DNA from: a virus
Lineage: Duplodnaviria > Caudoviricetes
DNA: 41,529 nt
Direction: 5' to 3' (one strand)
Virus record (IMG/VR): IMGVR_UViG_3300037722_000461
Location: 1 to 41,529 of that record
Shown here: piece by piece, positions 5,531-33,864 of the stretch
Layout of the letters: the number at the start of each line of letters is the position of its first letter
Position numbering within the stretch: position 1 is the first letter of the stretch
Notes under the pieces: model-generated
Seen by the model: the letters and a program-made list of their open reading frames with translations, nothing else
Database searches by the model: none
What the model was told of the DNA's origin: nothing
Position numbers and translations under genes: made by a program

Positions 5531-5531
5531 G

Positions 5532-8827: not shown

Positions 8828-8849
8828 TTCAAACTCCTTTTTATCTTCA

Positions 8850-9530
8850 TTAGAATATCATTGCGGGCGAGATCGCCGCCCCGCCGCCTCGAAATGAGGG
8901 GTTAAGACAATAGCCGATGGATCGCCAGCGGCCTGTGCCACCTGAGATGGTCCACGACATGGTCACGCTTGCACCCGTGCCGAGTTCAACAGACATATTA
9001 TTCTGCCCGTTGTCCCCAGGCGTACCCTGGTATTTAACGAACGTCTGGCTGGCGTGGGCGGTAAATGTGCCGGTGTCATCGGAGTACCCGACGCAATCGA
9101 CCACAAGCCCGCTTGGCGTGGATGGCACGGCAATCGTAACTGGCGAGGCTGTGCTTTGACCTACGACAGGTGTGTCGTGCAGAACGCTCGTCTGGTTGAC
9201 TCCGTAAAAATCGCATGCAATGCAGGATATAAATCCGCTGCCAGTCCAATTAAGTGCCAACGTATGTGCGCCAGTTGCTGGCGCGACAAGAACGAAGGCT
9301 GCCACTCTAAGGTCGGTCGAACCATATTCAATCAATTTCGTCATGGCCACGCCATTATATGTAGCCGAAATGATATTTGGCACGTTCGTGTCCATGGTTA
9401 CATGCAGCACAAGACAGGTATCCTCCCCTGCCGCGACAGTGTGCGAGAAAGAGTGAGAGGTACCAGCGGAGGCGCTCGCTGAGCCCGTGGGTGTGCCGTA
9501 TGTAATATCCGTTCCAGCGATCGTGGTCAT
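8850..9530 (-). CDS. Virion/tail-associated protein
   Basis: Start MTTIAG; S/T/G-rich beta protein among tail genes. Confidence 0.6.
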   Translation of the reverse strand: MTTIAGTDITYGTPTGSASASAGTSHSFSHTVAAGEDTCLVLHVTMDTNVPNIISATYNGVAMTKLIEYGSTDLRVAAFVLVAPATGAHTLALNWTGSGFISCIACDFYGVNQTSVLHDTPVVGQSTASPVTIAVPSTPSGLVVDCVGYSDDTGTFTAHASQTFVKYQGTPGDNGQNNMSVELGTGASVTMSWTISGGTGRWRSIGYCLNPSFRGGGAAISPAMIF

Positions 9531-9534
9531 ATCT

Positions 9535-10137
9535 CTAGGTCCTCGTATAGGTAATGACAACATCGAGCAGTCTGGCAGTGGCAGCCAGATTGTCCGAGGC
9601 GTGTGCGCTGTCTCGATAGACCCGTAGTAACACCGTTTTTCCTGCGGCTGGCGTGCCTGCGATGGTTATTGCCGATGTTTCATCCGATTTATTCAGGTCA
9701 CCGTTCGCGTTGTTCGCGTCCGTCGCCAACTGGGCGGATCCGAACGCCGCATCCAGGGCGTCGCTGTCGGCATAGGCAACACCCTGGATGCCCCACACAA
9801 CACTATTTGTGGATGCGTTCGCGCACGTCCAATTAAAATGAGCGGTGACAGGCCCGCCGTCGTAATCTGCTGGCAATTCGAGCAGGAATTCAGCGAACAA
9901 TGCGTAGCCGCTGTCCTCGAAATCCATCACGCGGAAATTGTTCTTGTTGGTGCTGGTCTCGAACGAGGCATAGGATGCGCCGTTCGTTGCGCTGGGGTGG
10001 AACGAAGCGCCATTGATCTGTATCTGTGAGTTGATCTTTTCATCCAGATACTCCTCGTTCTCTTTTATGGCATTCATGTGAGAGGCGGGGAGCTGGTTGC
10101 CCGCACTCTTTGTGGATAGCGTGTTCGGTAATGGCAT
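9535..10137 (-). CDS. Minor tail protein
   Basis: Start MPLPNTLST; AGNQLPASHMN motif typical of tail-fibre N-termini. Confidence 0.6.
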   Translation of the reverse strand: MPLPNTLSTKSAGNQLPASHMNAIKENEEYLDEKINSQIQINGASFHPSATNGASYASFETSTNKNNFRVMDFEDSGYALFAEFLLELPADYDGGPVTAHFNWTCANASTNSVVWGIQGVAYADSDALDAAFGSAQLATDANNANGDLNKSDETSAITIAGTPAAGKTVLLRVYRDSAHASDNLAATARLLDVVITYTRT

Positions 10138-19781: not shown

Positions 19782-20755
19782 GTGGTTTTCTCCTTACGAT
19801 ATGTTTTGATTCGTCCGCGCAAGCGCTCGATCTGGCGCGCGCGCTCAACATCCGCCTCGGTCTGTTTGCTGGATACAGCGCCGATCGGATGATCTACAAA
19901 AGGTGTTCCTCCCCTGCTCAATAATTGCTGGATGGTCTGGTTCAAAGTCCCCACGCGGTCGGCCATGCCCATTTCGACGGCGCGCTTGGCTGTGACCATG
20001 CGCCCCTGGCCGAAACCGTTGCGGACAGCCTCGTCGCTCACGCCGCGATTGCGGGCAACTGCCCCGACAAAGGAATCGTAGTATTCGCGCACGTTCTCCT
20101 GTATGGCGGCGCGCGCTTCATCGGTCAGGGGTTGGTATGGATTTGCTTCCGCTTTGTATTTCCCCTCCTTGATAATTGAAATTTTGACACCATCCTGATG
20201 CGCCGCGACGCTCCAATCCTGATGCACGGCAAAGACGCCAATGGAACCGACCTCGCCCGATGGCGAGACAACCACCTCGTCTGCGGCGGTGCCGATGTAG
20301 TAGGCGGCGCTTGCCATATCCTGATTTGCCACTGCGACAATCGGTTTCTTGCCTCGTGAGTCGTAGATCTGGCGGCTAAGCTCGTCGATACCGCCAACCT
20401 GTCCGCCCGGACTGTCCACGTCCAGAACAATGGCATCGATCTCTGGATCGTTGATCAATCCTGCAAATTGCGCGCCGAATTTTTCCGCGCTGGTGGCTCC
20501 CGACATTTCCGTCATGAGGTTGGCGCGGGGAAAGATCGTGCCGAACAGAGGCAGGACAGCCACGCTCTCGACACGGCGGTCGGCAGGGCGGCTGGCTCCG
20601 TTGATGCGGGCTTGTATCTCCTCGGCAGATAATTTCTCACCGGATACGTGCCGCGCAATGATCTCCTCCAGCATGGCAAGTTTGTGTGGGCGGATCGCCC
20701 ACGGGGTTTCAACAAAGGCCCGCAGGACATAACTATTTGTCGTCAGATTGGGCAT
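19778..20755 (-). CDS. S49-family capsid maturation protease
   Basis: LDVDSPGG, MASAAY, VGSIGV, GKYK motifs. Confidence 0.9.
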   Translation of the reverse strand: MPNLTTNSYVLRAFVETPWAIRPHKLAMLEEIIARHVSGEKLSAEEIQARINGASRPADRRVESVAVLPLFGTIFPRANLMTEMSGATSAEKFGAQFAGLINDPEIDAIVLDVDSPGGQVGGIDELSRQIYDSRGKKPIVAVANQDMASAAYYIGTAADEVVVSPSGEVGSIGVFAVHQDWSVAAHQDGVKISIIKEGKYKAEANPYQPLTDEARAAIQENVREYYDSFVGAVARNRGVSDEAVRNGFGQGRMVTAKRAVEMGMADRVGTLNQTIQQLLSRGGTPFVDHPIGAVSSKQTEADVERARQIERLRGRIKTYRKEKTT

Positions 20756-21983
20756 CGGGTTTGCCTCCTAATTTCACATTATTGGCGGTCATGTAGTAGT
20801 CTTCTCCACCCTGATAGGCGTTCAGATCGTCCTTGGCGCGGGCTTCGTTGGGATTTATCTGCCCCGAACGGATCTTGATCTCGTTGGTCTCAGCGCGTTC
20901 CTTGGCGGTCATTCGCAGAAGCGATGAGCGGTTGAATTTGAAGTAATTGTTACCTTGTTGATCGAGCGTCAGCCAGCGGATGCGGGCGCCCTGTTCCGTC
21001 GGGACGAGGTGCGCATCCAGGCATTGCTGCAGGTATTCGATGTGTTTCTGCTCGTTGGACTCGTAGGCTTCCTTGCCCATATTGAGCATGTGCAGGGGGA
21101 ACTTGAGGAAGTTGGCGATCTCGCGGTCGTCGCGTTCCATGGACCCCAAAAACTCGGCGTCTTTCGGGCTGAGCGAGATGGGCTTGAATTCGCGGACGCG
21201 CTTATCGGCGATGGCGATGTTGTAGGCTTTGTCAGACCCGCTGATCGAGCCTGCGAACGACTCGCGGACTATGTCGCGTTCCTCGTCGCTTTTGAGCTCG
21301 ATATTGTTGAGGTACAGGACGCCCGAGGGGTTCATGCCCTGTGAGTAAAATTTTGATTTTGTTTTATGCGCGCCCAATTGCCTGCCCATCGTTTCCCGCG
21401 CGTATGTGATCACGCCGCGTCCGACGAAGCCAGTCGCATCGGGATTTATCATTTCATGCAGCACTTCGACAGCGGGGATGTATTGCGGCTTGGTCGAATT
21501 GTTGAAGCGCACTGCGTACCAGAGTCCGCCCTTTTTATCCAGCACGGGAGCGGTGCGGTCAGCTGGCAATATCAGCAGCTGGGGCGGGTAAACAGGCGGA
21601 CGCCAGACGTATGAGTTGCCATGATAGAGCTTCCATTGCATTTTGGCCTGTTTGAACTGCATCGGCGTCCAGCCCCACTGGTTCGGGGAGATCTCCATCA
21701 GGTAGGGGATGTTTATGATCTTCGAGTCAGGCTCGACCTGGCGGATCATGCCGTCCACGCGCTCGAATTGGTGGAAGGGCATCATGGCGTAATCGTCGAT
21801 GATGGTGTTGGCAGCGCGGTAGAACGTGGCGAGGGTCATGGCGCGCTCGGGTGAGACACGCTCGCGCGATGTGGTCTGCTCGCCAAAAGACGAGATGAAT
21901 TCGACGCGCGGCTGTTCGGCGTTATTGTCGATGACAGGTTCTGATTTTGGTATGGCGGCTTTTGCCGCTTTAGTCAGGATCAT
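20733..21983 (-). CDS. Portal protein (HK97 family)
   Basis: HGNSY, EVLH, GRGVI, INPNEAR motifs. Confidence 0.9.
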   Translation of the reverse strand: MILTKAAKAAIPKSEPVIDNNAEQPRVEFISSFGEQTTSRERVSPERAMTLATFYRAANTIIDDYAMMPFHQFERVDGMIRQVEPDSKIINIPYLMEISPNQWGWTPMQFKQAKMQWKLYHGNSYVWRPPVYPPQLLILPADRTAPVLDKKGGLWYAVRFNNSTKPQYIPAVEVLHEMINPDATGFVGRGVITYARETMGRQLGAHKTKSKFYSQGMNPSGVLYLNNIELKSDEERDIVRESFAGSISGSDKAYNIAIADKRVREFKPISLSPKDAEFLGSMERDDREIANFLKFPLHMLNMGKEAYESNEQKHIEYLQQCLDAHLVPTEQGARIRWLTLDQQGNNYFKFNRSSLLRMTAKERAETNEIKIRSGQINPNEARAKDDLNAYQGGEDYYMTANNVKLGGKPDAQSDDK

Positions 21984-22147
21984 GCGCTATTCCCCTTTGC
22001 GATCTGGTGGCTGAAATAGATCAAAGAAACTCCAATGGCTATCCACCCGATGTATGGGAACGGGGATGTGAAAAATCCCACTGCGATGCAGGCGGCGCCC
22101 GCAAGGTAGGAGATATCATCGAGGTAGGGGAGGATATTTTTCAGCAT
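21980..22147 (-). CDS. Small two-TM membrane protein preceding portal
   Basis: MLKNILPYLDD...; ATGA overlap with portal. Confidence 0.55.
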   Translation of the reverse strand: MLKNILPYLDDISYLAGAACIAVGFFTSPFPYIGWIAIGVSLIYFSHQIAKGNSA

Positions 22148-22161
22148 ATGCGTGGAAACGC

Positions 22162-22201
22162 AAAAAACCCGGCCCAATCCGTTTAGGATTGAGTCGGGTT
22201 T
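22162..22201 (-). terminator. Intrinsic-terminator-like hairpin in head-gene leader
   Basis: AAAACCCGACTCAATCC-loop-GGATTGGGCCGGGTTTTTT on the - strand. Confidence 0.55.
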
Positions 22202-22251
22202 CAAGGTCCGACGGGTGGGCGCACGGGGCGCCGCGATCAGTTGTTGGTTAG

Positions 22252-22260
22252 ATTATAGCA
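22252..22260 (-). promoter_or_regulatory. Extended -10 element (TGcTATAAT) upstream of head genes
   Basis: Perfect TGnTATAAT just after the methyltransferase stop. Confidence 0.5.
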
Positions 22261-22265
22261 TAAGA

Positions 22266-22742
22266 TCAGGTATTTTTGTCGTCGAGTTTCATCAGTTTTA
22301 CATTGACATTCCCGTCACGGGTCCAGCGTAAGGATACGATCTCCCATGGTTTTGGGCTGTAGATGTGATAGCGGTGATGCTGGGGCGCGAAATACTGCCA
22401 GGTCACTTCGGTGACGGGGTTGCAGTGAGTGGGGTCGTGATAAAAACCGTCGCTGCCGCCATATGGACATTCGATGTCGATGATCGCGCCGATTTTGAGC
22501 ACGCGCCAGCATTCGTTCATGAAGGCGATGAATGGGAAGCGCGTGCCCACGCTGGTGACGCTGACAGGCGGGATGTGTTCGACGATGTGCCAGGCGTGGG
22601 CGAGGTCGATGCTGTCCGATTCAAAAGGCCAGGGACGCAGGTTGAGATCGTGGACGATATCCACGCCAGGCAGAGACTGGATATCCATACCGATCCAGTC
22701 GGGGGCCTGTTTGTGGGGTCCACAGGCGATGTCAAGATTCAT
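22266..22742 (-). CDS. Class I SAM-dependent methyltransferase (glycan-associated type)
   Basis: LDIACG, HIVEH, RVLK.G, DPTH motifs. Confidence 0.85.
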   Translation of the reverse strand: MNLDIACGPHKQAPDWIGMDIQSLPGVDIVHDLNLRPWPFESDSIDLAHAWHIVEHIPPVSVTSVGTRFPFIAFMNECWRVLKIGAIIDIECPYGGSDGFYHDPTHCNPVTEVTWQYFAPQHHRYHIYSPKPWEIVSLRWTRDGNVNVKLMKLDDKNT

Positions 22743-22744
22743 TT

Positions 22745-23293
22745 TCAAGGTCCTTTTTGGAGTGGAAATAATGAACGTAACGGGCCAGAGACGGCGACGA
22801 GTCGTTCGGGGTGCGGGACGGAGGCGCGGCATTCCTCTATCCACGGTCGCATCATTTCAGACAGGTCGAGCCTGGGCACTTGTTTCGGCTCGTAATTGTC
22901 GTGACAGTATTTGCGCGCGCCGCGGTACATATCCATGCCACACAAATAGACGGGGTTGCAGCCCATATAAAGCCCCAGCCAGGCGGCTGTGGTGGCTGAG
23001 TTCCGCCCGCGCCAGTATTTTACGTCCATTTCGATGTCTGAGCCGTAATCGGGCGAAACTTTGACAACATCTTCCTGCTCGAGTATTTTGAGCATCTGTC
23101 CGCGGTCGCGCGGGTCGTCGAGGTAGACCACAAAGTGAGGTTGGAGACCGATCTCGTGGGCATGGTAATTGACAGCAATGAGCAGCAGATTCGATGATGC
23201 TATGGCGGCAAGGTCGTCGGGGAGAGACGGACCACCTCCTAAAATAGCGGCGGGTATACCAGCGTAATAGTCAGCGAGGGATGAAAGCAGCAT
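22745..23293 (-). CDS. Maf/DUF115 (MptE-like, sialyltransferase-like fold) putative glycosyltransferase
   Basis: ILGGGPSL, IAVN, VYLCGMD motifs. Confidence 0.7.
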   Translation of the reverse strand: MLLSSLADYYAGIPAAILGGGPSLPDDLAAIASSNLLLIAVNYHAHEIGLQPHFVVYLDDPRDRGQMLKILEQEDVVKVSPDYGSDIEMDVKYWRGRNSATTAAWLGLYMGCNPVYLCGMDMYRGARKYCHDNYEPKQVPRLDLSEMMRPWIEECRASVPHPERLVAVSGPLRSLFPLQKGP

Positions 23294-23294
23294 G

Positions 23295-23849
23295 TTATGA
23301 GTATCGTCCGAACAACCTCACGAGCGGGCCGCTCATGGCGCGGATGCGTTCGGGATGCGGGCATTTTTCGAACGCCTGCCGCCAGAATTTGAGATGACCT
23401 TCAAGCGGCGCGTGCCATGCTACGTGATCGACGCCTGGACGCGGATGACAGTATTTTACCCTGCCCTGATAGCAATCCATGCCGCACAGGATGACGGGAT
23501 CGTAGCCGCACCAGAGAGCGTACCAGGTGGCGAGGGACGATGAGAAATCTCCGCGCCACGCACCTGGCGGCAGCGGCACATGCGATGTCTCAAATGGAGA
23601 AACAATCGTGCCCTTGAAGCCCCTGGCAATCTGCGCGACCTCATAGACGTTTGTCAGGCGATCTTGATGGACGAGCACGTGTGGTTCACAAAAATAAAAC
23701 GCATGATTGTTGACACTTATCAACACGCATTCGTCTGGCAGTTTTTTGAGATCGCGCGGCAACGACGGTCCACCGCCCAGGACGGCGGCAGGTCGGGTGG
23801 ACGCTTTAGTTTGAAAGACAGTCATTAATGGGCGAAGTTGAGCCGCCAC
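23295..23849 (-). CDS. Paralogous Maf/DUF115-like putative glycosyltransferase
   Basis: VLGGGPSL, ISVN, VILCGMD; shares KYCH and PHPER with its neighbour. Confidence 0.7.
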   Translation of the reverse strand: MAAQLRPLMTVFQTKASTRPAAVLGGGPSLPRDLKKLPDECVLISVNNHAFYFCEPHVLVHQDRLTNVYEVAQIARGFKGTIVSPFETSHVPLPPGAWRGDFSSSLATWYALWCGYDPVILCGMDCYQGRVKYCHPRPGVDHVAWHAPLEGHLKFWRQAFEKCPHPERIRAMSGPLVRLFGRYS

Positions 23850-23954
23850 GCCCGTTCATGGAAGCGGCGTAAATGTTCCGCACATCCTACATCGAACGCC
23901 TTTTAATATTGTTACGTCTTCCTCCTTCCCGTGCAAAGCCGACGGGAGTTCGGC
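23842..23954 (-). repeat. Degenerate attC8, distal end of array
   Basis: GCCGCCGAAC-TCCCGT ... ACGGG-C-GTGGCGGC; right end coincides with the GTG start of the 23849 gene. Confidence 0.4.
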
Positions 23955-24143
23955 GGCATGGGCGTCCTCGGCTTTTCGCCTCTCGTATACTTCGTTAGCA
24001 ATCTCATCAACACCCATTGCAACAAACCAACTCTCAAGGGCGGTACGCGCCATCTCTTTAAGTTTTTTAGGGTCTCTTTCACGACTATAACCGATAACAT
24101 CCAATACAGATACTAAGTGCGAGATTTGTTCCTTTGTAGGCAT
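23856..24143 (-). CDS. Cassette 8 ORF, hypothetical protein with C-terminal CxxC
   Basis: GAAAGG RBS; reads through R'' (AAEL). Confidence 0.65.
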   Translation of the reverse strand: MPTKEQISHLVSVLDVIGYSRERDPKKLKEMARTALESWFVAMGVDEIANEVYERRKAEDAHAAELPSALHGKEEDVTILKGVRCRMCGTFTPLP

Positions 24144-24176
24144 ACGTTTTTCCTTTCATGGAGCCGATACTCCCGT

Positions 24177-24290
24177 TTACAATGGGTTTGCGTAACCCGC
24201 CCTATGCAGGCAAGTTACTTTCGGATTTCACGACATCAGGCAGGCTCAAAACCGCCGCCTTCAAAGAGTCGGGTTCACGCGGTGTTGGCT
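24177..24290 (-). repeat. attC7 (ibrAB cassette)
   Basis: AGCCAAC-acc-GCGT[G]AACCCG...CGGGTT-ACGC-aaaccc-ATTGTAA. Confidence 0.8.
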
Positions 24291-24462
24291 GTGCTTTTCC
24301 ATTTATTACCGCTGTTTCATAAGCAGACCATGACGGCTTGCCTTTATAAAAATAACCTGCCTTACCTGCGGCTTCGTTCAATGCCGCTGTGCGTTTTGAT
24401 TGCCGAGTTGCTTTTGTGCTGTCTTTCCAATTCGGATCATGCTTGCGTTTCTTTTGCTTCAT
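24202..24462 (-). CDS. Small basic, putative DNA-binding protein (last gene of ibrAB cassette)
   Basis: ATGA overlap with ibrB; C-terminus runs into attC7. Confidence 0.65.
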   Translation of the reverse strand: MKQKKRKHDPNWKDSTKATRQSKRTAALNEAAGKAGYFYKGKPSWSAYETAVINGKAQPTPREPDSLKAAVLSLPDVVKSESNLPA

Positions 24463-24977
24463 GCCATCTCCCATGCTTCGGAAAATTCATCATCTCCAAA
24501 CAAATCCGCAAGACCTGATATTTGCTTCAAACGCAAAACTTCATCAGGTTCCATTCCAAGTTCTTTTGCTATTTTCTGATCGCTCCAATTTCGGCGGGCA
24601 AGTTCTTGCACGATTTCAGACATTGCGCCTACTTGATGTTTTCCGCGTGCGCGATTATGGCGAATGGTTGAAGCAATGCGGTCTGATCGGTCTGTACGTC
24701 CTTCGCTGATTACGACAACAGGCAAATGAGACATGCCAAGTTTCTTGCCAACTAAATGACGGTGAAAACCATCAACGACTTCATAGCCGTTTTCAGTTTG
24801 CCAGACAACAATCGGCTGCGTAAAGCCATCTTCAAGGATACTCAATTCAAGCAATTCCATTTCAGGCTTTGCAACTGAGTTTGGGTTGTAATCGTTTGCA
24901 AAAACTTTATCCGTTAGAACCCATTGCACAAACGAAACTGGATGTTGTTTCGTCCACTCTAAATCATTAGTTTCCAT
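24459..24977 (-). CDS. ibrB: IbrB-like ParB/Srx-domain protein
   Basis: ANDYNPN, DGFTQPIV, VVDGFHR, STIRHNRARGKH. Confidence 0.9.
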   Translation of the reverse strand: METNDLEWTKQHPVSFVQWVLTDKVFANDYNPNSVAKPEMELLELSILEDGFTQPIVVWQTENGYEVVDGFHRHLVGKKLGMSHLPVVVISEGRTDRSDRIASTIRHNRARGKHQVGAMSEIVQELARRNWSDQKIAKELGMEPDEVLRLKQISGLADLFGDDEFSEAWEMA

Positions 24978-26161
24978 TCCTGTCTCCTGCGCTTCATCAA
25001 CTTTGTATATTTTTCGTATGCTTCGGATTTATGCTGACTAAAAGATAAGCCCTTGCACCAGTAGTCATTTCTCAAAAGTGCTTTGCAAATTCTCTTCCAA
25101 CTTGGCGCAGACTTGTCAAGCGGTCCGTCATCAGGAATTCCACCGGCATAACCGCGATCTTGATACCACTTCAAAAAAACAGCGATCTTATCTTTGTAGT
25201 GCTCCGCATGCTTTGGCGGAAGTGTGTCAATCAACATTAGCGCAAATGATTGCCAAGTGTGTCCAGGTGGAAGGGAAACTGTATTCACTCCGAGAATATT
25301 CCCGATTTCTTGAGCGTACAATGCGCCTTGATTTGCTCCGTTCACGCGGGCTACAATCTTCCCCCATGTTTCAGGCTCGATGATGTGAAACAGCCATAAA
25401 CCTTTTCGCTGATCGTCACCGTAGGGTTGGCAAATTCGCATTTGGTGAATCGTCAAACCTGCCTGATACATGCGGTCATAAAGTTTGTTGTATGGCTTAT
25501 CTGGATTGCGTCCCTGCCAAATCCAAAGGTCTTTTGTTTTCCAATCGTAAATCGGATAAGCATTGTAAAGACTTTCACCGCACCACGTTGTCCATTGATG
25601 ACCGTCAATAGTTTGTTTCTTTTCGCTTGCAATTGTGCGCCATCGGTTTAGGCTTTCATCTGTGCGGATGCCTACAAAGCAAGCCGTCAATTTCCCTTGA
25701 CCGTACCAATGACCGAACGCGGGGATAAATTCTTCAAACTCCATTGCGCTTCGGAAAAATGGAAAATAATTCTCATCCGTGATTGCCATCTCTGGCGGAT
25801 TTCTTATCCACGCTTCTTCTTTTCCTCGTTCCCAGCAGACCCATTGCGGCTGGTACTGGCTGACTGCATTACGAAGATGAATTGGCAATGCTACCCAATA
25901 AGGGTCAATGTTTTCTGCGTACATATCGTAGCAAGTTTTGATGTGGTCAATCGTGAGTTTATATTGTCCTTCCAAATCCACAAACAGCACGCCTATTTTC
26001 TTACCGCGTTTGATTGCTTCCGCCATTACTAAATGCAACATGACGGTTGAATCTTTCCCGCCAGAAAACGAAAGATAGATTTTCGGGAACGTGTCGAACA
26101 CATATTCTATTCGTCGTTTTGCGGCTTCGTAAGTTGTGATGCCGAGTGATCTTTTATCCAT
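24959..26161 (-). CDS. ibrA: IbrA-like PAPS-reductase-family/DUF3440 protein
   Basis: SFSGGKDS PP-loop, GIRTDESLNR, YPIYDW, RICQPYG, LLRNDYWC. Confidence 0.9.
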   Translation of the reverse strand: MDKRSLGITTYEAAKRRIEYVFDTFPKIYLSFSGGKDSTVMLHLVMAEAIKRGKKIGVLFVDLEGQYKLTIDHIKTCYDMYAENIDPYWVALPIHLRNAVSQYQPQWVCWERGKEEAWIRNPPEMAITDENYFPFFRSAMEFEEFIPAFGHWYGQGKLTACFVGIRTDESLNRWRTIASEKKQTIDGHQWTTWCGESLYNAYPIYDWKTKDLWIWQGRNPDKPYNKLYDRMYQAGLTIHQMRICQPYGDDQRKGLWLFHIIEPETWGKIVARVNGANQGALYAQEIGNILGVNTVSLPPGHTWQSFALMLIDTLPPKHAEHYKDKIAVFLKWYQDRGYAGGIPDDGPLDKSAPSWKRICKALLRNDYWCKGLSFSQHKSEAYEKYTKLMKRRRQEWKLMI

Positions 26162-26535
26162 TGGTTTACAAATTCCTTATCAACTCGCTGGATTTCTCCA
26201 TCATCTGTGACTGTGCAAAAATATCGCTCTGTTTTCTTCCAGTTCTTTGGCGCGCTTACTTCGTAAACATAACCGCTTTCAAGAATGTACCAAAGAAAAA
26301 CTCCGCGCGATCCTTTGCTGTTTGCTTTTTTATAATCTTTCTTTGCTTTTAGAAATTGGCGAGAATATCCGAATTTCGGATCAGTACCTACAATCATTGC
26401 GACCCAGTAATCAGGCTTTGGTGCGCCAATCGCGTCTCCGAGACCTGGCGCACCATCGTTCAAAATGCCTGTCCAAAGTCGCATGTATTGAAAGGTATTA
26501 TCTCCAATCGCTTCGACTTTGAGCGTTGCTTTCAT
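26107..26535 (-). CDS. Hypothetical protein upstream of ibrA
   Basis: TAATG coupling; KDY..ANSKGSRGV...YEV...RYFC. Confidence 0.7.
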   Translation of the reverse strand: MKATLKVEAIGDNTFQYMRLWTGILNDGAPGLGDAIGAPKPDYWVAMIVGTDPKFGYSRQFLKAKKDYKKANSKGSRGVFLWYILESGYVYEVSAPKNWKKTERYFCTVTDDGEIQRVDKEFVNQWIKDHSASQLTKPQNDE

Positions 26536-26804
26536 TAGCAATCCACGAAGTAAACACCTTGCTCTGCGTTGTATTCCGATATTGCTTTATCGGCTTCTCG
26601 AACCATTGCCGCACGAAAGTTCTCAACTGCGTCTTGATGGGCGGCTTCTTTTGTTTCGCCTTTTCCGTGATAATTGCCATTATCAGTCACGATCTTGCAG
26701 GTGTAATACGGAACAAATTCACCTTCGTTTTCATCAACTTCCACCAGTCCCGCGAACGGTCTTTCGGTTACGTGCTTTGTTTTGACTTTCTTGATAGTAA
26801 TCAT
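26535..26804 (-). CDS. Hypothetical protein, first gene of ibrAB cassette
   Basis: AAGGAG RBS, ATG at 26804. Confidence 0.7.
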   Translation of the reverse strand: MITIKKVKTKHVTERPFAGLVEVDENEGEFVPYYTCKIVTDNGNYHGKGETKEAAHQDAVENFRAAMVREADKAISEYNAEQGVYFVDC

Positions 26805-26836
26805 TTTGTTATCTCCTTGTTTGGTTTGATTGCTCA

Positions 26837-26865
26837 ATATTACTACACGTTATATAACGTGTCAA
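26837..26865 (-). promoter_or_regulatory. Sigma70 promoter of ibrAB cassette with palindromic operator
   Basis: TTGACA-17 bp-TAATAT; perfect 18-bp palindrome ACACGTTATATAACGTGT (26845-26862). Confidence 0.8.
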
Positions 26866-26925
26866 GAGTAAACAAGAAACTCGTTTTGCTCGATTTTTGC
26901 ACGAAACCATGAACTCGGAGCAAAC

Positions 26926-26972
26926 AGCCAACGGGGCGCGAATGCGCGAGCGTTTTCGCTCGCGCATTCGGG
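26926..26972 (-). repeat. Minimal attC6-like site of an ORF-less ~86-bp cassette
   Basis: CCCGAAT, 14-bp perfect stem CGAATGCGCGAGCG-AAAA-CGCTCGCGCATTCG, then cgcccc-GTTGGCT. Confidence 0.5.
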
Positions 26973-27011
26973 GGATGCAAGCCCCCCGCACTTTGGGGGA
27001 GCGCAGCGTCC

Positions 27012-27151
27012 GCCGAACGGGCGCGGGATGAGCGGACGACGCGAGGGGCGGTCATCACAACTCATCCCAAGCCCTACTAATCAATCTTTGGTACGGACAT
27101 CATTGGCGGTCTCATCCGCCCCTGCTCGTTCCGCTCCATCCATAGTTCGGT
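27012..27151 (-). repeat. attC5
   Basis: ACCGAAC-tat-GGATG[G]AGCGG[A]ACG...CGT-CCGCT-CATCC-cgcgccc-GTTCGGC. Confidence 0.85.
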
Positions 27152-27200
27152 GGCGCGATAGCGAAGGAATCATCCTTGCTAATTTATGACAAATGGACAT
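27081..27200 (-). CDS. Cassette 5 short ORF (39 aa)
   Basis: GAGGTG RBS, TGATG overlap; MSICHKLARM... ends inside the attC5 loop. Confidence 0.4.
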   Translation of the reverse strand: MSICHKLARMIPSLSRHRTMDGAERAGADETANDVRTKD

Positions 27201-27562
27201 CACACCTCTTTTCTCTCAAGAACTATGGATGCATCCCGCGCCCGTTCGGTGGCGAGGCGAGGACTCTTCTTTGCAGGCTTCGGGTCATGGTCTGGATTGG
27301 TTAGAAGGCTTTCTAATTGCGCTTCCAACTCTTTTACGCGTTTCTGTAAAGCCCTAACCCGACTAGGTGCGGCATGTAGACTATCGGGCCAACCAAGACC
27401 GTCTTTCATTTTGTCACCGAACTGAGCTGCTTCATCGCAAGCCTGTAACGTGTTTCCATAAGTGGCGACATATTGCATGCGTCCCTTTGTGGCAAAGCAG
27501 ATGATATGGTCATATCCATATTTTTTCGACAATTCTTTTAGCGATTTGATTGGGATGTTCAT
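27200..27562 (-). CDS. Hypothetical protein nested in the cassette 5 leader
   Basis: GAAAGGA RBS; bracketed by GTTAGAAGGCT / AGCCTTCTAAC. Confidence 0.7.
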   Translation of the reverse strand: MNIPIKSLKELSKKYGYDHIICFATKGRMQYVATYGNTLQACDEAAQFGDKMKDGLGWPDSLHAAPSRVRALQKRVKELEAQLESLLTNPDHDPKPAKKSPRLATERARDASIVLERKEV

Positions 27563-27656
27563 AGATTCCTTTCTAGCAAAGTAGCCTTCTAACTCCTCAC
27601 GGCGGGCAAGCGGGGGCTAACGAGGGGGCTGGCGTACCCGCCAGTCTCCGAGCGCC

Positions 27657-27820
27657 ACCGAACGGGGGCGCGATGAGCCGCACGGCGACGGTTACGAAAG
27701 CGGCGTCTCTGATCCGCATTTATCACACTTGCACAATATACCAGGGTTTGCAGATGCAACCCAATGATGCTCACAAGCCGCTTGAGTGTCGCCAGTGTCG
27801 GCTCCATTGCTGTGTTCGGC
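27657..27820 (-). repeat. attC4
   Basis: GCCGAAC-acagca-ATG[G]AGCCG[A]CAC..GGCGAC...GTCGCC-GTG-CGGCT-CAT-cgcgccccc-GTTCGGT. Confidence 0.85.
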
Positions 27821-27940
27821 GGCACGGGTTATCTCGTCAAAATACTCATCTTCCGTCATTTGGATGAGATAGAGAAAGATACGGAAGGCTACACCCGACA
27901 ACCATTCTCGAATTTTACTGCCTAAACTTTGTTTACCCAT
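27692..27940 (-). CDS. Cassette 4 ORF: helical N-module plus C-terminal Zn finger
   Basis: GAAAGGTG RBS; CEHHW...CDKC encoded in the attC4 loop. Confidence 0.65.
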   Translation of the reverse strand: MGKQSLGSKIREWLSGVAFRIFLYLIQMTEDEYFDEITRAAEHSNGADTGDTQAACEHHWVASANPGILCKCDKCGSETPLS

Positions 27941-28009
27941 TCGTCTTCACCTTTCAGAGAGCCGATACACAGCAATTGCATCGCGCCCCCGTTCGGCGGC
28001 GAAGCCGCT

Positions 28010-28219
28010 CTACCGCCCATGAAAATCCAAGGCTTGTTGATAGCGACCATTGGCGTCACCGCCAGCAGACACAGCAGACACAACGGATGCCCACTCCTCA
28101 GGCGGAATGACCATACGAGTAATGATAGGCGATTCAAGCCCTGCATCTTTGCGCTTGGTGACCATCACCGAGCCATCCGGCAAGCGCTGGAAAAACCATC
28201 CTTCTTTCAAGTGAAACAT
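28010..28219 (-). CDS. Hypothetical protein nested in the cassette 4 leader
   Basis: GAGGAGG RBS; flanked by a perfect 14-bp inverted repeat. Confidence 0.7.
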   Translation of the reverse strand: MFHLKEGWFFQRLPDGSVMVTKRKDAGLESPIITRMVIPPEEWASVVSAVSAGGDANGRYQQALDFHGR

Positions 28220-28295
28220 TTGTGCCTCCTCAGGCGGTAGAGCGGCGGTAACGAGTGATGCCCACGCTCTTGGTTTATGTGGGCGTCCGAGTGCC

Positions 28296-28455
28296 GCCGA
28301 ATGGCGCGAGCGTCACCTGACGTCCGCCGTTTTGAGAACTGCGCTCACCGCTTCGTAAGACTCTTCTGAAAGCAAGTCCATTTCGTTATCGTGCCTGTCT
28401 CGAATTGTGCGGAGCAGTTCGATGGCGGAACGTTCAGGTGCACGCAGAGTTGGGC
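28296..28455 (-). repeat. attC3
   Basis: GCCCAAC-tct-GCGT[G]CACCTG[A]ACG...CGT-CAGGTG-ACGC-tcgcgcc-ATTCGGC. Confidence 0.85.
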
Positions 28456-28642
28456 TGCGCGGGTCAAGGCAAAAAGCATTGTCATAAATGAAATTAGCCA
28501 GTCGAGATACTTCATCTGCAAATGTTTTTAACATTGCCGCCGTCGTTTCTGGCGAGATACCATTGTCCCAATAGTACTCATTCAGCGCATCTCTCATTGC
28601 CTGATATTTTTCAGAGTTTCTCGTAACATCTATTTGCGACAT
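28313..28642 (-). CDS. Cassette 3 ORF, hypothetical
   Basis: GAAAGGT RBS; reads through the attC left arm (PTLRAP); stop lies within L'. Confidence 0.7.
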   Translation of the reverse strand: MSQIDVTRNSEKYQAMRDALNEYYWDNGISPETTAAMLKTFADEVSRLANFIYDNAFCLDPRSPTLRAPERSAIELLRTIRDRHDNEMDLLSEESYEAVSAVLKTADVR

Positions 28643-28739
28643 ACTTTACCTTTCTACTAAAGCGCAGGTCAATCTCTGCGTTTACGCTCGCGCCATTGGG
28701 CTGACCAAGCCCCCCGCCTTTTGGGGGAGCGAAGCGTCA

Positions 28740-28967
28740 GCCCAATGGGGCGCGGAATAAGCGGCGAGCGGGGCGTTTAGAAAAGCCGCCATCTTTCGTG
28801 CCAAATATTTACTCGACATCGGGAAGCCACGGTTCACTCCCAAAAGGGACGAACATTTGGCAACCTTCACATTTATAGCCATAGTATCCTTTCTTCCAGT
28901 CGTGCTTATTAGGATTGCACGATGGGCTTTTCTGCCCCGCATCGACCGCTTCATTCCGCAGTTCGTC
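28740..28967 (-). repeat. attC2
   Basis: GACGAAC-t-GCGGAAT[G]AAGCGG[T]CGA.GCGGGG...CCCCGC-TCG-CCGCTT-ATTCCGC-gcccc-ATTGGGC. Confidence 0.85.
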
Positions 28968-29078
28968 GGCGCGTATCTGGCTCGTGTTGATGACTTCAAG
29001 TTCACACTTGCAGGCGACGCACCAATTGTAGAGAGTATTAAAGTAGACTTGTCGGCATGACGGGCAATATAGAAACAT
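28809..29078 (-). CDS. Cassette 2 ORF: two Cys-rich modules
   Basis: AAGGAG RBS; CPSC..CVAC, then C....H....CEGC in the attC2 loop. Confidence 0.7.
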   Translation of the reverse strand: MFLYCPSCRQVYFNTLYNWCVACKCELEVINTSQIRADELRNEAVDAGQKSPSCNPNKHDWKKGYYGYKCEGCQMFVPFGSEPWLPDVE

Positions 29079-29176
29079 AGCGACACTCCTTTACTTTCTG
29101 GAGACGGGCTGAGGAATGTATCCCGCGCCCCATTCGTCGGACCAAGCCCCCCGCAGTTTGGGGGAGCGAAGCGTCA

Positions 29177-29410
29177 GCCCAATGGCGCGAGCGTCACCTG
29201 CAAGGGCGACGTTCACGCAGAAATCGGTTTCCCGCAATGAAAACAAAAAAAGACTTCGTTTTCGTCAAGGTCACCGTCAATAAAACAATACGCGCTTCCA
29301 CACGCGGTATCATACGAGCTACTTTCCTCGTCATCATTGCGCGTCCAGCTACACGTTTGCACGGACGATTTCGGAGTGTCGTCCTTGACAGGTGCACGCA
29401 GTAGTTGGGC
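29177..29410 (-). repeat. attC1
   Basis: GCCCAAC-tact-GCGT[G]CACCTG[T]CAAGG.CGAC...GTCG.CCTTG-CAGGTG-ACGC-tcgcgcc-ATTGGGC. Confidence 0.85.
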
Positions 29411-29533
29411 TGCGCGGGGTTGCCATTCATTCACCCACGATGGAGCCAAAAACATGGGGTACTCTTTACAAACCGTCTGTATCCAATAGACAGCATTATT
29501 AATCATTTCATCTTTCGTCAATGTTTGCGACAT
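29213..29533 (-). CDS. Cassette 1 ORF with C-terminal Zn-ribbon domain
   Basis: GAGAGGT RBS; CSW...TACG...FCFHCGKPI encoded in the attC1 loop. Confidence 0.7.
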   Translation of the reverse strand: MSQTLTKDEMINNAVYWIQTVCKEYPMFLAPSWVNEWQPRAAQLLRAPVKDDTPKSSVQTCSWTRNDDEESSSYDTACGSAYCFIDGDLDENEVFFCFHCGKPISA

Positions 29534-29553
29534 ATTTTACCTCTCAGTTCCTA

Positions 29554-29592
29554 GCAGCCCTACTATCCTTATCCACTTACGGACGGATAATA
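29554..29592 (-). other. Putative attI, overlapping the 3' end of intI
   Basis: ATTATCCGTCCGTAAGTGGATAAGGATA-GTAGGGCTGC; the core is complementary (1 mismatch) to the cassette 1 R'' GCAGCCCAAC. Confidence 0.6.
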
Positions 29593-30602
29593 TTCCACTG
29601 GACAGACTCCAATTTATCCAGCGGACTTTCCACCCCAACGCCCCCAGGGTGGAGAAGATGCAAATAGACCATCGTGGTTTTGATATCCTTGTGTCCCATC
29701 AATTCCTGCACTGTGCGAATGTCGTATCCAGCCCAGAGCAAATGAGTTGCATAACAATGGCGGAATACGTGTGGTGTGACACGTTTCGTGATCCCAGCCT
29801 TGATAGTCGCTCTGCGGATCGCCCGTTGCAGTTCGCTCTCGTGCTGATGGTGCCGTCGGCGGATCTTCGTCTCAGGGTCTACGCTGTAATTCTGCGCAGG
29901 AAATACCCAGAACCAACCCCAATCACAGCCGATGTTTGGATATTTCCTGTCCAGCGCTCCAGGGACGTATACACCAGGCATCCCGCGCTGTTGATCGATA
30001 TTCCAGAAATTCCGCGCAATGGACATCTGATCCATCAACGGCTTGACCAGTGTGTTCGGCAATGGGACCGTGCGATCTTTGTCCCCCTTGCCGCCTCGCA
30101 CCGTGACAGTCATCAACCCGAAATCAATATCCTTGGTCCGCAACTGTTGACACTCATTCAGTCGCAGACCACACCCATACAGTAACCGCGCCATCAAATT
30201 TAACGGATCGCCATCTACGTGATTCAAGACACGCGCCGTATCCTCGCGGTTCAATACTGACGGCAGTCTCTTCCCTTCCTTCGCTCGCATGGACTCCACT
30301 CCCCGAATGTCCACACCCAGAATTTCACGGTAAAGGAATAGGATCGCATGGAGACATTGATTCTGTGTTGAAGCGGCAACCTTAGCAGTGTTGGCAAGAT
30401 GATTTAAATACTTTTCGATCTCCGCTTTTCCCATCTCGCGCGGATGCCGCTTTCCGTGGAAGAGGATGAACCGTCTGCACCAGGTCACATAGGTTGTCAG
30501 TGTTTTTCGGCTGTAATGTTTCATGCGGATTTTATCCGCCAGTTGATCAAGTAACTTCGGTTCAGGCATTGACAGCATCTCCTTGTAATTCGGCTTGTCC
30601 AC
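29577..30602 (-). CDS. intI: Integron integrase
   Basis: KLLDQ..IRMKHYS.KT...VAASTQNQ N-domain; GLR, GKGDKDR, HVFRH, LMGH, TMVY catalytic set; IntI-specific insertion VYVPGALDRKYP...W.WFWVFPA. Confidence 0.97.
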   Translation of the reverse strand: MDKPNYKEMLSMPEPKLLDQLADKIRMKHYSRKTLTTYVTWCRRFILFHGKRHPREMGKAEIEKYLNHLANTAKVAASTQNQCLHAILFLYREILGVDIRGVESMRAKEGKRLPSVLNREDTARVLNHVDGDPLNLMARLLYGCGLRLNECQQLRTKDIDFGLMTVTVRGGKGDKDRTVPLPNTLVKPLMDQMSIARNFWNIDQQRGMPGVYVPGALDRKYPNIGCDWGWFWVFPAQNYSVDPETKIRRRHHQHESELQRAIRRATIKAGITKRVTPHVFRHCYATHLLWAGYDIRTVQELMGHKDIKTTMVYLHLLHPGGVGVESPLDKLESVQWNIIRP

Positions 30603-32395
30603 TAGAATCCCAGACCTTCCAAGCTCCTCGATGATGTTGCTTCGCGCAGGGCGGCGACGCGGATGAGGGCGGTGATGGATGCGGCGAGCAGGTCCACGCG
30701 TTTGGTGTCGCCTGCGAACTTTTTGGTTATCATTATGTTTTCCTTCGAATCGGTGATCTGTATGGCGTTGGCCACGTGCGCCCGCAGGAGGGGGTTCCCA
30801 TCGTGGACGAAATTACCAGAGATGACGAGCTCGCGCAGGTATTTTGTGGCTTCTGACAGGCTGGGCATGGTCTGGCGAACCTCGACGCGGGTATAACCAC
30901 GTTCTTCGAAATCGATAGCAAAGCGGGTGGCGGAGTAGGGGTCGTAACAGAGTTCAAAAATGCGGATCTGCCCGTCGAGTTCAGAATCAATGATGAAGTC
31001 ACGCATGACTCTGTCGTCGATCACGTCGCCTGGGTTGGTGGTGATCCAGCCATCGTCAACGTATGTCTGATAGGGTATCTTGTCAGATTTTTCGTGAGCG
31101 GCGATGGCTTCTTCGGGCAGGAACCCGTGAGCGGTGAGGGCGACGCGCTCTTCGTCCATCGAAAAGATAAAGGCGGAGGCGGTGAGATCGATCTTTTTGG
31201 ACAGGTCAGCGCCCACGAGCGCATCCATGCCATGTGTGAGTTCGTCGAAGTCTGCGCGGGGGATGGCGCAGGCATCCCATTGTTCCATGAATTCTCCCAT
31301 ATAGCTGTCTCCTTTTGCGCCGTGTATCCAGAGGTTGAGTTTCTTGATACGGAACTGGCGCACCTTTTCGGGTATCTTGCTATCGAAGGCTGCGTCGTGC
31401 ATTTCTTGGAATTCGGCAATGCCTTCGGGTGTGGCGCACAGCAATGGATTGGCTTTGATCCAGTTGGCGGGTTTGTGTTCTTTGTCGTTCTTGTCGAGCT
31501 CGCGGATCATGACGAAATATCCATCGTTTGGAACGCGACCAGAGACGATCTCCCGGCAGTATTCGATTTCTTTGTAGCAGGACGACTCGGTATCGTTGCC
31601 CGCAGTGGTGATGATGAGCATGAGCGGCTGGAGACGCTGGCCCTGGGCAAGGTCGAGCGCGTCGTAGATCTCAGAAGTCTTGTGCGCCCAGTATTCATCA
31701 ATGACGGAGCAGGTGGGCGAGAAAGCGTCTTTGTTCTGGATGTCGCCCGAAAAGGCTCTCATTTCGCCGCCGCGGTCCTTATGGCGCATGTCGAAGAGTC
31801 CGATCTTGAGGCGTTTGCGAATACTCTTGGATTTTTTTGCCATGTCGCGTGCCGAGTTAAAGCACACTCTGGCTTGTAGTTTATCAACGGCGGCGGTGTA
31901 GACTTCTGGATTTTCCTCCATATCGGCGACCATCATATAGAGCGCGACGCCCGCTATGCGGGTGGTCTTGGCGTTCTTGCGTCCCTCGGTGATAAGTGCC
32001 TTACGGTAGCGGCGGATGCCTACCCTGCGACCATTGGAGCGGGTGATCTTTTTCGCGCGCGAGACCCATCCGAAGATCGAACCGATGTCGAAAACGTGGG
32101 CGGGGATGAGTTCGATGGGCTGTCCGACGAGCCTTCCCTTGATGTGCTGGAGTTCGCGGAACCAGTCGATGGCGACGAACGACGCCTGCGTTTCGTCGAA
32201 CTCCCAGGGGAAAGACCCGTCTTTCTTCGGAACAGCTTTTTTCGTCCCTTTACGCACCCTGGCTCTGAGGGACGAGTTCATCTGCCCTGCGCGGGCAAGG
32301 TCGTGCAGGTGGCGGAAACATGCCTGCCGCTCGGGCGTGCCTGTGATGACTCGGTTCTCGATCACGTCGAGGGCGTAGGATGTGACAGGGTGCAT
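30602..32395 (-). CDS. terL: Terminase large subunit
   Basis: Walker A GRKNAKT, Walker B VIDE, ITTAG, GADLS...DLTA, YDPY, RVD. Confidence 0.95.
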   Translation of the reverse strand: MHPVTSYALDVIENRVITGTPERQACFRHLHDLARAGQMNSSLRARVRKGTKKAVPKKDGSFPWEFDETQASFVAIDWFRELQHIKGRLVGQPIELIPAHVFDIGSIFGWVSRAKKITRSNGRRVGIRRYRKALITEGRKNAKTTRIAGVALYMMVADMEENPEVYTAAVDKLQARVCFNSARDMAKKSKSIRKRLKIGLFDMRHKDRGGEMRAFSGDIQNKDAFSPTCSVIDEYWAHKTSEIYDALDLAQGQRLQPLMLIITTAGNDTESSCYKEIEYCREIVSGRVPNDGYFVMIRELDKNDKEHKPANWIKANPLLCATPEGIAEFQEMHDAAFDSKIPEKVRQFRIKKLNLWIHGAKGDSYMGEFMEQWDACAIPRADFDELTHGMDALVGADLSKKIDLTASAFIFSMDEERVALTAHGFLPEEAIAAHEKSDKIPYQTYVDDGWITTNPGDVIDDRVMRDFIIDSELDGQIRIFELCYDPYSATRFAIDFEERGYTRVEVRQTMPSLSEATKYLRELVISGNFVHDGNPLLRAHVANAIQITDSKENIMITKKFAGDTKRVDLLAASITALIRVAALREATSSRSLEGLGF

Positions 32396-32420
32396 GTTAG
32401 GAGTTTCTCAACTATCCTTA

Positions 32421-32885
32421 TCAATCAAATTCATTTCCAAACTGGTCTTCATCGATTCCGCTGGCGGTCTTCTTGATCAGCCTCGCGCGCGATGCGGGAG
32501 TAAAGCCAAGCCGTTCTGCGGCTCCGATGATGCGCAGTGAATATGTCTGCTTGATCTTGTGCTCATCGAGCGTGGTCTTGCCGTTCTTTTTGGCAAGGCC
32601 ACTGTAACTGGCAAGATTGTCACAGAATACGGCGAGCACATCTCCGTCGAGAGTGTCCAACAGCGTGTCCGGGCTGTTGAGCCCCTTGATCTCTTTGATC
32701 TTGCGCTGCCAGATGGCCTTGGCTTCTTTGTTGAGCCAGGCGGGCGGCTTGAGTGTCACTGACTTGGCCCGCGAAAGCGCGTCTGCGGCTTGCTTGCGAC
32801 GGTCAATTTCGGCGAGGGTGCGATGCTTGCGTCCCTTTGTCTTTTTGGACGGGTCGACGTTGGGGTGGTCCGCTGGGTTGGGCAT
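32421..32885 (-). CDS. terS: Terminase small subunit (P27 family)
   Basis: PPAWL..EAK..W and LGFTPASRARL. Confidence 0.9.
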   Translation of the reverse strand: MPNPADHPNVDPSKKTKGRKHRTLAEIDRRKQAADALSRAKSVTLKPPAWLNKEAKAIWQRKIKEIKGLNSPDTLLDTLDGDVLAVFCDNLASYSGLAKKNGKTTLDEHKIKQTYSLRIIGAAERLGFTPASRARLIKKTASGIDEDQFGNEFD

Positions 32886-32977
32886 GTCACGTCTATGGCG
32901 CCAATGGGGGACTTATCCGCAAGACCGTCTTACATAACGTTACGAGTCTCGAGAATGAAAACATTTTTCGATGGGGT

Positions 32978-33337
32978 TCACCCACGCTGACCCAGGTGGA
33001 CTTCACTCGCTGTTTTGCGCGAGTGATGACGCTTACACTTGGAGTTGTCAGGGACATGTTCAATGGTCTTGAACAGACCCTCGTCGCCATTGTGGCGAAT
33101 GGGATGGTGCACATCCCTCGCCTTGACCCGCCTGCCCTCGCGCAGACAGTCCGAGCAGTAGGGATACATACGCAGCTGCTCCATCCTGAACTCCTGCCAC
33201 CACGTGGAGTGGTAGAGTCGGGTGACCTCTGGATTACGTGTAACGTTTCTGTCATAGCTGTGTCTCTTGCATCTGCCTGCAGTGACCAGTGTGGTGCAAC
33301 CTGGATAGGTACACTCGCGCTTGCTTCTGCTTGGCAT
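32978..33337 (-). CDS. HNH endonuclease, terminase-associated
   Basis: MPSRSKRECTYPGC...CKRH, YPYCSDC, VHH, CKRHHSRKT; position before terS suggests cos packaging. Confidence 0.85.
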   Translation of the reverse strand: MPSRSKRECTYPGCTTLVTAGRCKRHSYDRNVTRNPEVTRLYHSTWWQEFRMEQLRMYPYCSDCLREGRRVKARDVHHPIRHNGDEGLFKTIEHVPDNSKCKRHHSRKTASEVHLGQRG

Positions 33338-33392
33338 GGGATGGGTGCCGGAGACTGTGCGCTGGACTCTACCAGCGCACAGTCTCTGGTCG

Positions 33393-33749
33393 TTATCCTT
33401 TGCCAGTGAGTCTTGCCTTGAGTTCAGGCTTGACACCGAACCAAGACAACACATACATGATGATCCCAAGTATGATGACATTGTCAATCGGCAGGGCAGG
33501 GGCGAAGAAGTGGACGACAAAGACCAGGAATCCCGCCACCAATTGCCAGAATGCAAGCGAGTGTATGATGTCACCCTCAAGTGCACCGCGCGCCCTGACT
33601 GCTGGCACGACCCCAATCAACCCCAGCGCAAACAGGACCAGCGCAAGGATGGACACATTGTCAAGTGGGAAAGCTGCGTAGTAGAATCGGATTGCAAAAC
33701 CGATCAATCCCACGAGAAGTGTCCAGAAGGTAAGACTGTTGTAGATCAT
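33393..33749 (-). CDS. Four-TM membrane protein with internal duplication (holin-like)
   Basis: SLTFWTLLVG / SLAFWQLVAG and LPxDNV repeated; AGGAG RBS. Confidence 0.65.
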   Translation of the reverse strand: MIYNSLTFWTLLVGLIGFAIRFYYAAFPLDNVSILALVLFALGLIGVVPAVRARGALEGDIIHSLAFWQLVAGFLVFVVHFFAPALPIDNVIILGIIMYVLSWFGVKPELKARLTGKG

Positions 33750-33864
33750 TTTCTATTCTCCTTTTCTAAATGCGAATAGCGCCGATCGGACGGACGTGAA
33801 GTCCGCCTGATCAGGCGCTACGCTGATGGTGGGTGCAACGTGCACCCGCTCATTTGTAAAAATA

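Follow-up and report, generated by a model that had tools for sequence, protein, structure and literature searches.

The window analysed here, the whole 41,529-base stretch of DNA, is the entire record of a viral contig (IMG/VR record IMGVR_UViG_3300037722_000461, Caudoviricetes). It belongs to an HK97-like, temperate phage whose terS, terL, portal, protease, capsid and endolysin genes lie on the minus strand. Between terL and the portal region we found an integron, consisting of an integron integrase gene (intI), an attI site and an array of cassettes with their attC sites. A sequence-only reading of the same DNA had proposed such an integron at this place, and the gene order was confirmed. 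The open reading frames (ORFs) and sites are listed below in their order on the minus strand; loci compared with the window carry L numbers.

32421–32885, minus strand: terS (context).
30602–32395, minus strand: terL (context).
29577–30569, minus strand: intI, integron integrase of 330 amino acids, ATG at 30569 with a ribosome-binding site.
29557–29590, minus strand: attI, adjoining the 3' end of intI, with its crossover at 29563/29562; the core is G|TA in the window and G|TT in relatives.
29183–29562, minus strand: unit 1, with c1 (29213–29533, 106 amino acids, CxxC tail) and attC1 (29410–29177); a two-headed unit whose head is lost.
28746–29182, minus strand: unit 2, with an ORF-less GC hairpin, an inverted mini-attC (29138–29103), c2 (28809–29078) and attC2 (28967–28740).
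28302–28745, minus strand: unit 3, with a hairpin, a mini-attC (28701–28668), c3 (28313–28642) and attC3 (28455–28296); homologue in L351.
27663–28301, minus strand: unit 4, with c4 (28010–28219), a mini-attC (27997–27962), c5 (27692–27940) and attC5 (27820–27657).
27018–27662, minus strand: unit 5, with c6 (27200–27562), a mini-attC (27250–27217), c6b (27081–27200, 39 amino acids) and attC6b (27151–27012).
26932–27017, minus strand: third hairpin, in which the right arm of an attC is copied as a palindrome; rearranged head.
24183–26931, minus strand: unit 6 (2.75 kb), with a sigma70-type promoter (26865–26837), c7a, c7b, ibrA (24959–26161), ibrB (24459–24977), ORF x and attC7 (24290–24177); shared with L211.
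23829–24182, minus strand: unit 7, with a truncated head, c8 (23856–24143) and a degenerate attC8 (23954–23823).
20733–21983, minus strand: HK97-type portal gene (context).

The open frame of intI extends to a GTG at 30602 and overlaps the terL stop, and the likely start, the ATG, lies 33 bases past that stop. Its product scored 424.8 bits against TIGR02249 (cut-off 265) and was aligned end to end with VchIntIA of Vibrio cholerae (PDB 2a3v; E 1.8e-83), including the IntI-specific insertion; its identity to IntI1 was 49.5%. The catalytic residues R136, K161, H267, R270, H293 and Y302 (R-K-H-R-H-Y) were invariant in 11 members of its clade and remained unchanged across 60-88% divergence. These results bear out the earlier description of a full-length IntI. 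The attI site was set by 15 matches in relatives (one pair being near-identical contigs), which have the core in common and whose sequences diverge only on the right-hand side of G|TT. Its 12-base core follows the intI stop and has one further copy in the window, with 0.06 chance matches expected. Since the core comes after the intI stop and the sequence varies only beyond G|TT, the integron is co-directional, with intI and cassettes in the same orientation and attI at the 3' end of intI. A weak promoter scan, which yields about as many sites as are found in shuffles, gave no promoter-like site between terL and attI and one candidate upstream of terS at 33487. In the 16 rows of the clade described below, intI mostly abuts the upstream phage ORF, the clear exception being L212 with a promoter-like spacer.

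In the array, an arm-pairing search detected six arm-paired attC sites on the cassette strand and 0 on the other. In the remaining phage sequence (71,556 bases) the same search gave 2 sites, or 0.16 expected per equal length. A seventh and last site is degenerate, with a core that overlaps what is likely the start codon of the following backbone gene. The array comprises seven attC-bounded units with 13 ORFs. The integron is hence complete, as proposed, with a cassette number close to the suggested eight or so, but the array ends at 23829 and not at 23842. The attC sites are 114-234 nt long, and four of the seven (160-234 nt) exceed the range of 56-141 bp given in the available text of PMC5371416. 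The bottom strand of attC1 folds (z -2.12) into a structure that includes an R box of 7 bp, a central loop and two bulged bases, and attC6b reached a z of -2.02.

Comparison of sister phages revealed turnover of the arrays. L003 and L214 are 99.97% identical across 10,996 bp, and L083 and L343 are 99.93% identical across 10,041 bp; in both pairs the alignment ends at the attI crossover, with no homology to its right. At the terL-portal site, L069 and L345 share a 99.93% identical flank from the last core onward and carry different arrays. Cassettes also occur as units in other arrays: L211 carries the ibrAB cassette at 87% identity, in another array before terS and bounded by the cassette start and an attC arm, and a cassette homologous to c3 is present in the array of L351. 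Moreover, sample S2 contained pieces with 0-8 differences from the flanks of the window phage together with joints that skip between attC cores. Arrays are not invariant among relatives: in sisters that match over 10-11 kb, the sequences part at the attI crossover.

A quick tree of 101 IntIs grouped 16 co-directional rows on one branch (SH-aLRT, a Shimodaira-Hasegawa-like branch test, 100), apart from 30 Anaerolineales chromosomal IntIs. Phage genes accompany 14 of the 16 rows, which are viral contigs or prophages; of the other two, L222 measures 1.4 kb, and in L220 the only such genes are phage-like early ones. IntI was found in 132 of 401 Anaerolineales genomes, and two of the best 30, which were fetched, fall in this clade, both inside phage DNA. 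The attI pattern occurred in 1 of the 401 genomes, and the first scan with it gave mostly chance hits, 107 of 119 viral loci being without a match to window proteins. The host IntIs are 45-56% identical to that of the window, and the host integrons are of the classical type, with attC upstream of intI in 15 of 19 regions; several of them share the attC arms of the phages. Among the phages the position of the integron varies, mostly at the end of the early region and between terL and the portal gene in three phage types. The order terL-intI-array-portal recurs in L069 (terL 24% identical) and in L212 (terL 52% identical), with one small ORF before intI. A partial GenBank entry, Virus Rctr41k (KX853513.1, L402), holds the same integron type with a canonical attC array at 4495-9975, annotated only as xerD. 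A hairpin search further identified a second co-directional clade of ten rows (L351, L360 and L362-L369), with IntIs 42-46% identical to the window's, another attI and the same cassette pool, including the c3 homologue. The idea of two independent domestications for these clades (A and B) was given up: the quick tree splits them, but a tree that keeps them joined stood 40 log-likelihood units higher, and a single origin was not rejected in the approximately unbiased test (p-AU 0.885). Collectively, the integron is a lineage trait and not a one-off, and the phage domestication suggested before is supported by a phage-associated IntI clade that is no copy of the host's. Separately, the phage IntIs of L004-L007 make up a distant branch (39-42%); there, attC-like sites precede intI and do not lie downstream of it.

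Taken together, we consider it probable, at about 0.83, that the window carries a complete integron whose integrase belongs to a phage-associated lineage and whose attI adjoins the 3' end of intI, and that the phage likely captures, drops and reorders small accessory cassettes with it during lytic growth. The activity of IntI would follow from the natural variation described above. Lacking a promoter-like site of its own, intI would be expressed with the phage gene to which it is coupled upstream (terL in the window), and hence late, at a stage when the abundance of replicating copies and the presence of single-stranded DNA could allow attC hairpins to fold. The terS-terL promoter would replace the Pc promoter and express the cassettes by read-through. 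IntI would insert cassettes through attC x attI exchange at G|T and excise them through attC x attC exchange, as in bacterial integrons, and the attC format, being that of the host, would make exchange with the host pool possible. The placement in a late operon, also proposed before, held with respect to position; an extended -10 promoter-like site lies ahead of the portal block, and for this reason the array probably terminates the terS-terL unit.

The attC sites of these phages are largely protein-coding. Among sites fitting one arm pattern, an ORF passed the R'' box by at least 24 bases at 34 of 35 phage sites, as against 2 of 24 host sites. Alignments showed one gene with differing attC tails (window/L211, window/L351, L365/L368 and L367/L360) as well as one tail on differing genes (L003/L215, L212/L368 and L211/L368), the breaks falling in the left arm, so that gene bodies and attC tails have been exchanged independently; either IntI or recombination at short homologies may have made these exchanges. 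The CxxC motifs of c1 and c5 are located within attC. With IntI1, L-box recombination of attC was measured as rare, according to the available part of PMC4792948.

Four units carry, in addition, a head of 34-36 bases, which is an inverted and truncated copy of the unit's own attC. It consists of an R'' box, the reverse-complemented right spacer of the next attC, 2-3 bases of the L stem, the reverse-complemented left spacer and an often damaged core. A rule-based search for such two-headed cassettes gave 21 matches in 63,593 bases of arrays, of which 16, in eight phage records, had matching R boxes; the other five were discarded as chance because their R boxes did not match. The controls gave 1 match in 70,200 bases of non-array DNA and 2 in 12 shuffles, and strict matches were absent from both strands of 276,016 bases of host regions. 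A reading of the mini sites as ordinary attC hairpins found no support, since their folds did not surpass those of shuffled sequence (z -0.66 to +1.47). As both head spacers match the attC of the same cassette, the heads look like local inverted duplications. In equilibrium predictions they reduce attC arm pairing from 0.97 to 0.57 and from 0.91 to 0.66, and at the other two sites from 0.64-0.67 to 0.41-0.44. Top-strand recombination inverts cassettes, as described in the available text of PMC5027507. Our best guess is that the heads are scars of a top-strand x bottom-strand exchange, retained because they damp excision. As a separate observation, two-headed cassettes also lie behind attI-like cores at L354:4600-5050 and L357:4090-4450, with no intI within the fetched flanks; that of L357 comes just after a portal-like gene, and its core resembles the host attI. 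A wider proposal, tentative and in our view doubtful, is that these phages serve as a workshop of cassette making. In such a workshop attC modules would be joined to new genes at the left arm, the swaps would, since ORFs read through attC, also give proteins new C-terminal tails that are often CxxC-rich, and two-headed cassettes would be frozen products of an exchange by IntI, either top strand x bottom strand or at the L box, in which an attC was copied next to a gene.

Several points weigh against the reading favoured above. The window attI has G|TA at its core where relatives have G|TT, attC7 does not fold better than shuffled sequence (z +0.14, compared with -4.08 for the L211 version) and attC8 is degenerate; because of these two weak sites the distal array may be decaying. 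The proposed timing of expression derives from gene layout, and no excised cassette circle was found among the contigs compared. The viral collections were searched deliberately, which favours phage members, the trees were quick trees without bootstrap, and a protein search listed at least 120 clusters at 66-87% identity without genome context. Finally, phage cassette ORFs gave only 2 weak matches to 19 host integron regions, so that exchange with the host is at most a possibility.

One alternative is an active lineage whose copy in the window is frozen through decay of these sites, an explanation compatible with our reading at the level of the lineage. Besides the G|TA core and the weak attC7 and attC8, it can draw on the lowered attC pairing predicted for headed units. 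However, in the full-length versions of cassette 1 found in L357 and sample S2, the head is followed directly by a GTA core, and unit 1 therefore likely joined attI by a crossover at this inner core; G|TA would then record a recombination event and not drift. The near-identical phage in S2 has other cassette joints, and intI is intact. We regard a frozen copy as unlikely, while granting it more weight than any other alternative.

Could the phage intI be a mere passenger, with the shuffling done by a host chromosomal IntI or by homologous recombination of the phage between attC arms? The frequency of IntI in Anaerolineales genomes (132 of 401), several with the same attC family, would allow it, as would the cassettes of L354 and L357 without intI in their fetched flanks, the latter with a core like the host attI, and the gene/attC swaps that break within shared attC arms, as short-homology recombination would. 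Yet the attI crossover is the exact point at which the sister phages part, homology being absent to the right of it, each phage IntI clade retains its own attI, and the catalytic residues have stayed invariant over the divergence given above. We also count against it that attI is reportedly recognised only by its cognate integrase (PMC2095811, available text). A passenger intI appears improbable to us. Still less probable is an inert captured fragment of a host chromosomal integron, like the Vibrio prophages of Qi et al. 2023. Such captures have been published (PMC9892861, available text), the attC family is that of the host sites and the distal sites look decayed, but the host IntIs lie elsewhere in the tree at 45-56% identity, host integrons have a divergent layout, their ORFs end ahead of attC where phage ORFs read through it, and arrays turn over between sisters; this explanation is largely refuted. 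An assembly artefact fusing a bacterial integron to a phage has next to no probability left: the array does contain repeats, and unitigs of the probable source run break only at repeated hairpins and at attI, but these unitigs cover 21000-28748 and 29565-33775 with 0 differences and cross both suspected junctions, terL/intI and array/23849, and the gene order recurs in L069 and L212. An artefact at both outer junctions is refuted; the check, made on contigs of the probable source sample, tests the assembly and not the sample.

A second attI core, empty of cassettes, was observed upstream of the integron:

32396–32426, minus strand: second, empty attI core between terS and terL, a 25-nt insert relative to related junctions.

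This core reads G|TT, and 17 nt of it are identical to the attI of L002, L066 and L131; the 25 bases separate terS from terL, which abut in related phages. In run X3 one contig (single, depth 4.1) has an attC left arm immediately before the terL leader, and this suggests that the core once held cassettes. As a further observation on attI, runs X2 and X4 (one contig per run, one sample) have, at window 29565-29594, an attI copy with promoter-like sequence ahead of it and not intI.

The cargo is of phage type, as had been supposed, and no resistance family was detected among window ORFs with NCBIfam. By their Pfam matches, IbrA and IbrB are a predicted phosphoadenosine phosphosulfate (PAPS) reductase plus DUF3440 protein and an adjoining ParB-N protein; the window IbrA shares 48.9% identity with its counterpart in phage PhiR5_2 and about 40% with that of streptococcal phage. 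CxxC motifs are present in c1, c2, c5 and c8 and may bind zinc. Most cassette ORFs have 60-120 residues and no assigned family. PHROG matched 20 of 91 cassette ORFs (88 of the 91 from relatives, all chosen by a ribosome-binding-site filter), and seven of the matches were DNA methyltransferases. A cargo of methyltransferases, IbrAB and CxxC proteins would likely serve counter-defence and host adaptation. PADLOC gave no defence system among 15 window ORFs, with only weak DndC, BrxP and methyltransferase matches for IbrA/IbrB, and ESM Atlas gave nothing for c7b. A recurrent cassette type, seen in the window (26837-26865), L002, L069, L211, L212 and L215, has a sigma70-type promoter and a palindromic operator; its first ORF is variable, and is not the same in the window and L211, and its small last ORF is conserved. 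In L131 (11046-11426) a cassette ORF matches phrog_478, labelled recombination directionality factor.

The phage has its own means of integration, separate from the integron, as noted before:

1571–2536, plus strand: the phage's own tyrosine integrase, separate from intI (context).
1001–1038, plus strand: attP core of 38 bases, matching prophage-flanking direct repeats (context).

The attP core is 95-100% identical to direct repeats bounding prophages of 38 kb and 40 kb in two Anaerolineales genomes, and these prophages hold the nearest genome relatives of the window IntI (88% and 72% identity). On both grounds the host is likely an Anaerolineales bacterium. ARAGORN found no whole tRNA in the window, and attP was located through the prophage repeats instead. 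A scan of 67 window ORFs found no transposase, in line with the earlier remark that no transposon or insertion sequence is visible, and Rfam gave no match within 21000-33000. The record has no terminal repeat, and an ORF at the two ends is out of frame upon plain joining; the genome is likely circular. Two MptE-like paralogues and a methyltransferase, at 22266-23849, lie between array and portal gene together with a small membrane gene, and MptE-like genes stand at the same place in L001, L069 and L345. At 22173-22290, as in L001, L130 and L211, a promoter-like site and a conserved hairpin-and-T-run leader precede late gene blocks, with antitermination as a possibility. Elsewhere in the window we noted an HD-domain protein (Pfam HD_5, phosphodiesterase-like; 3142-3729) adjoining lysis genes, a 34-bp inverted repeat (33332-33405) upstream of an HNH gene, and a 711-amino-acid tail-region protein with internal repeats (5867-8002).

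By all features testable here save Pc, the element is a member of the integron family, in a variant that is phage-associated and co-directional, with operon-driven expression and coding attC sites. The Vibrio cholerae integron is chromosomal and has uniform VCR (Vibrio cholerae repeat) sites. It shares with the window a full-length IntI alignment, the catalytic residues and the IntI insertion, whereas the attC sites of the window are heterogeneous, 114-234 nt long and protein-coding. With the chromosomal integrons of Anaerolineales the window integron has the attC arm family of several hosts in common; these differ in their divergent layout, their other attI, their ORFs, which end before attC, and the lack of two-headed cassettes in 276 kb. 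It is not a captured sedentary chromosomal integron, since IntI, attI and layout differ from the host's, nor a mobile class 1-type integron, in view of the lack of transposases and resistance families among the 67 window ORFs. The fused and delta-attI cassettes of class 1 integrons (PMC4670013, PMC12901181) likewise have truncated or displaced sites inside arrays, but these, in the available texts, are lost attC or attI remnants and not an inverted copy of the next cassette's attC. In an inverted integron-integrase layout (Treponema type), described from bacterial genomes, intI is co-directional with the cassettes, as in the window; this group is a paraphyletic layout and not a clade, and the available text mentions no phage-associated clade (PMC4889954, Cury et al. 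2016). Qi et al. (2023) reported 3 complete integrons in 10,705 phages, namely a subset of a Vibrio chromosomal integron, a class 1 integron of P1 and an integron of a cryptic Shewanella prophage, its IntI being 95% identical to that of S. oneidensis; partial genomes were left out (PMC9892861, available text). Those phage integrons also combine IntI, attI and attC cassettes in temperate phages, with methyltransferase cargo, and differ from the window, whose IntI clade is phage-associated, co-directional and promoter-less, resides in phage operons and shows turnover between sisters. Our literature search, in which subscription journals were thinly covered, found no account of an Anaerolineales phage integron lineage, of Rctr41k or of inverted attC copies; the 17 CALINs (clusters of attC sites lacking integrases) listed by Qi et al. 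could include a relative.

In summary, our results support the proposal that the integron is the phage's own diversification system, to the extent that a phage-associated clade and turnover at the attI crossover can indicate it. Surveys may have missed it on account of its long attC sites with overlapping ORFs and of their omission of incomplete genomes. Integrons are viewed as bacterial stores for adaptation and anti-phage functions, with phages as occasional carriers. A phage lineage with its own integrase and attI in its operons would have a site-specific route to accessory-gene mosaicism, methyltransferases included, and the attC format common to phages and hosts is a possible two-way bridge. 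According to the available part of PMC4792948, there is no reliable model of how cassettes first arise, and coding attC sites, independent tail swaps and two-headed cassettes offer concrete substrates for this question. If the workshop idea were true, the missing step of cassette genesis would be exposed, and integrons would shuffle parts of proteins as well as whole genes.

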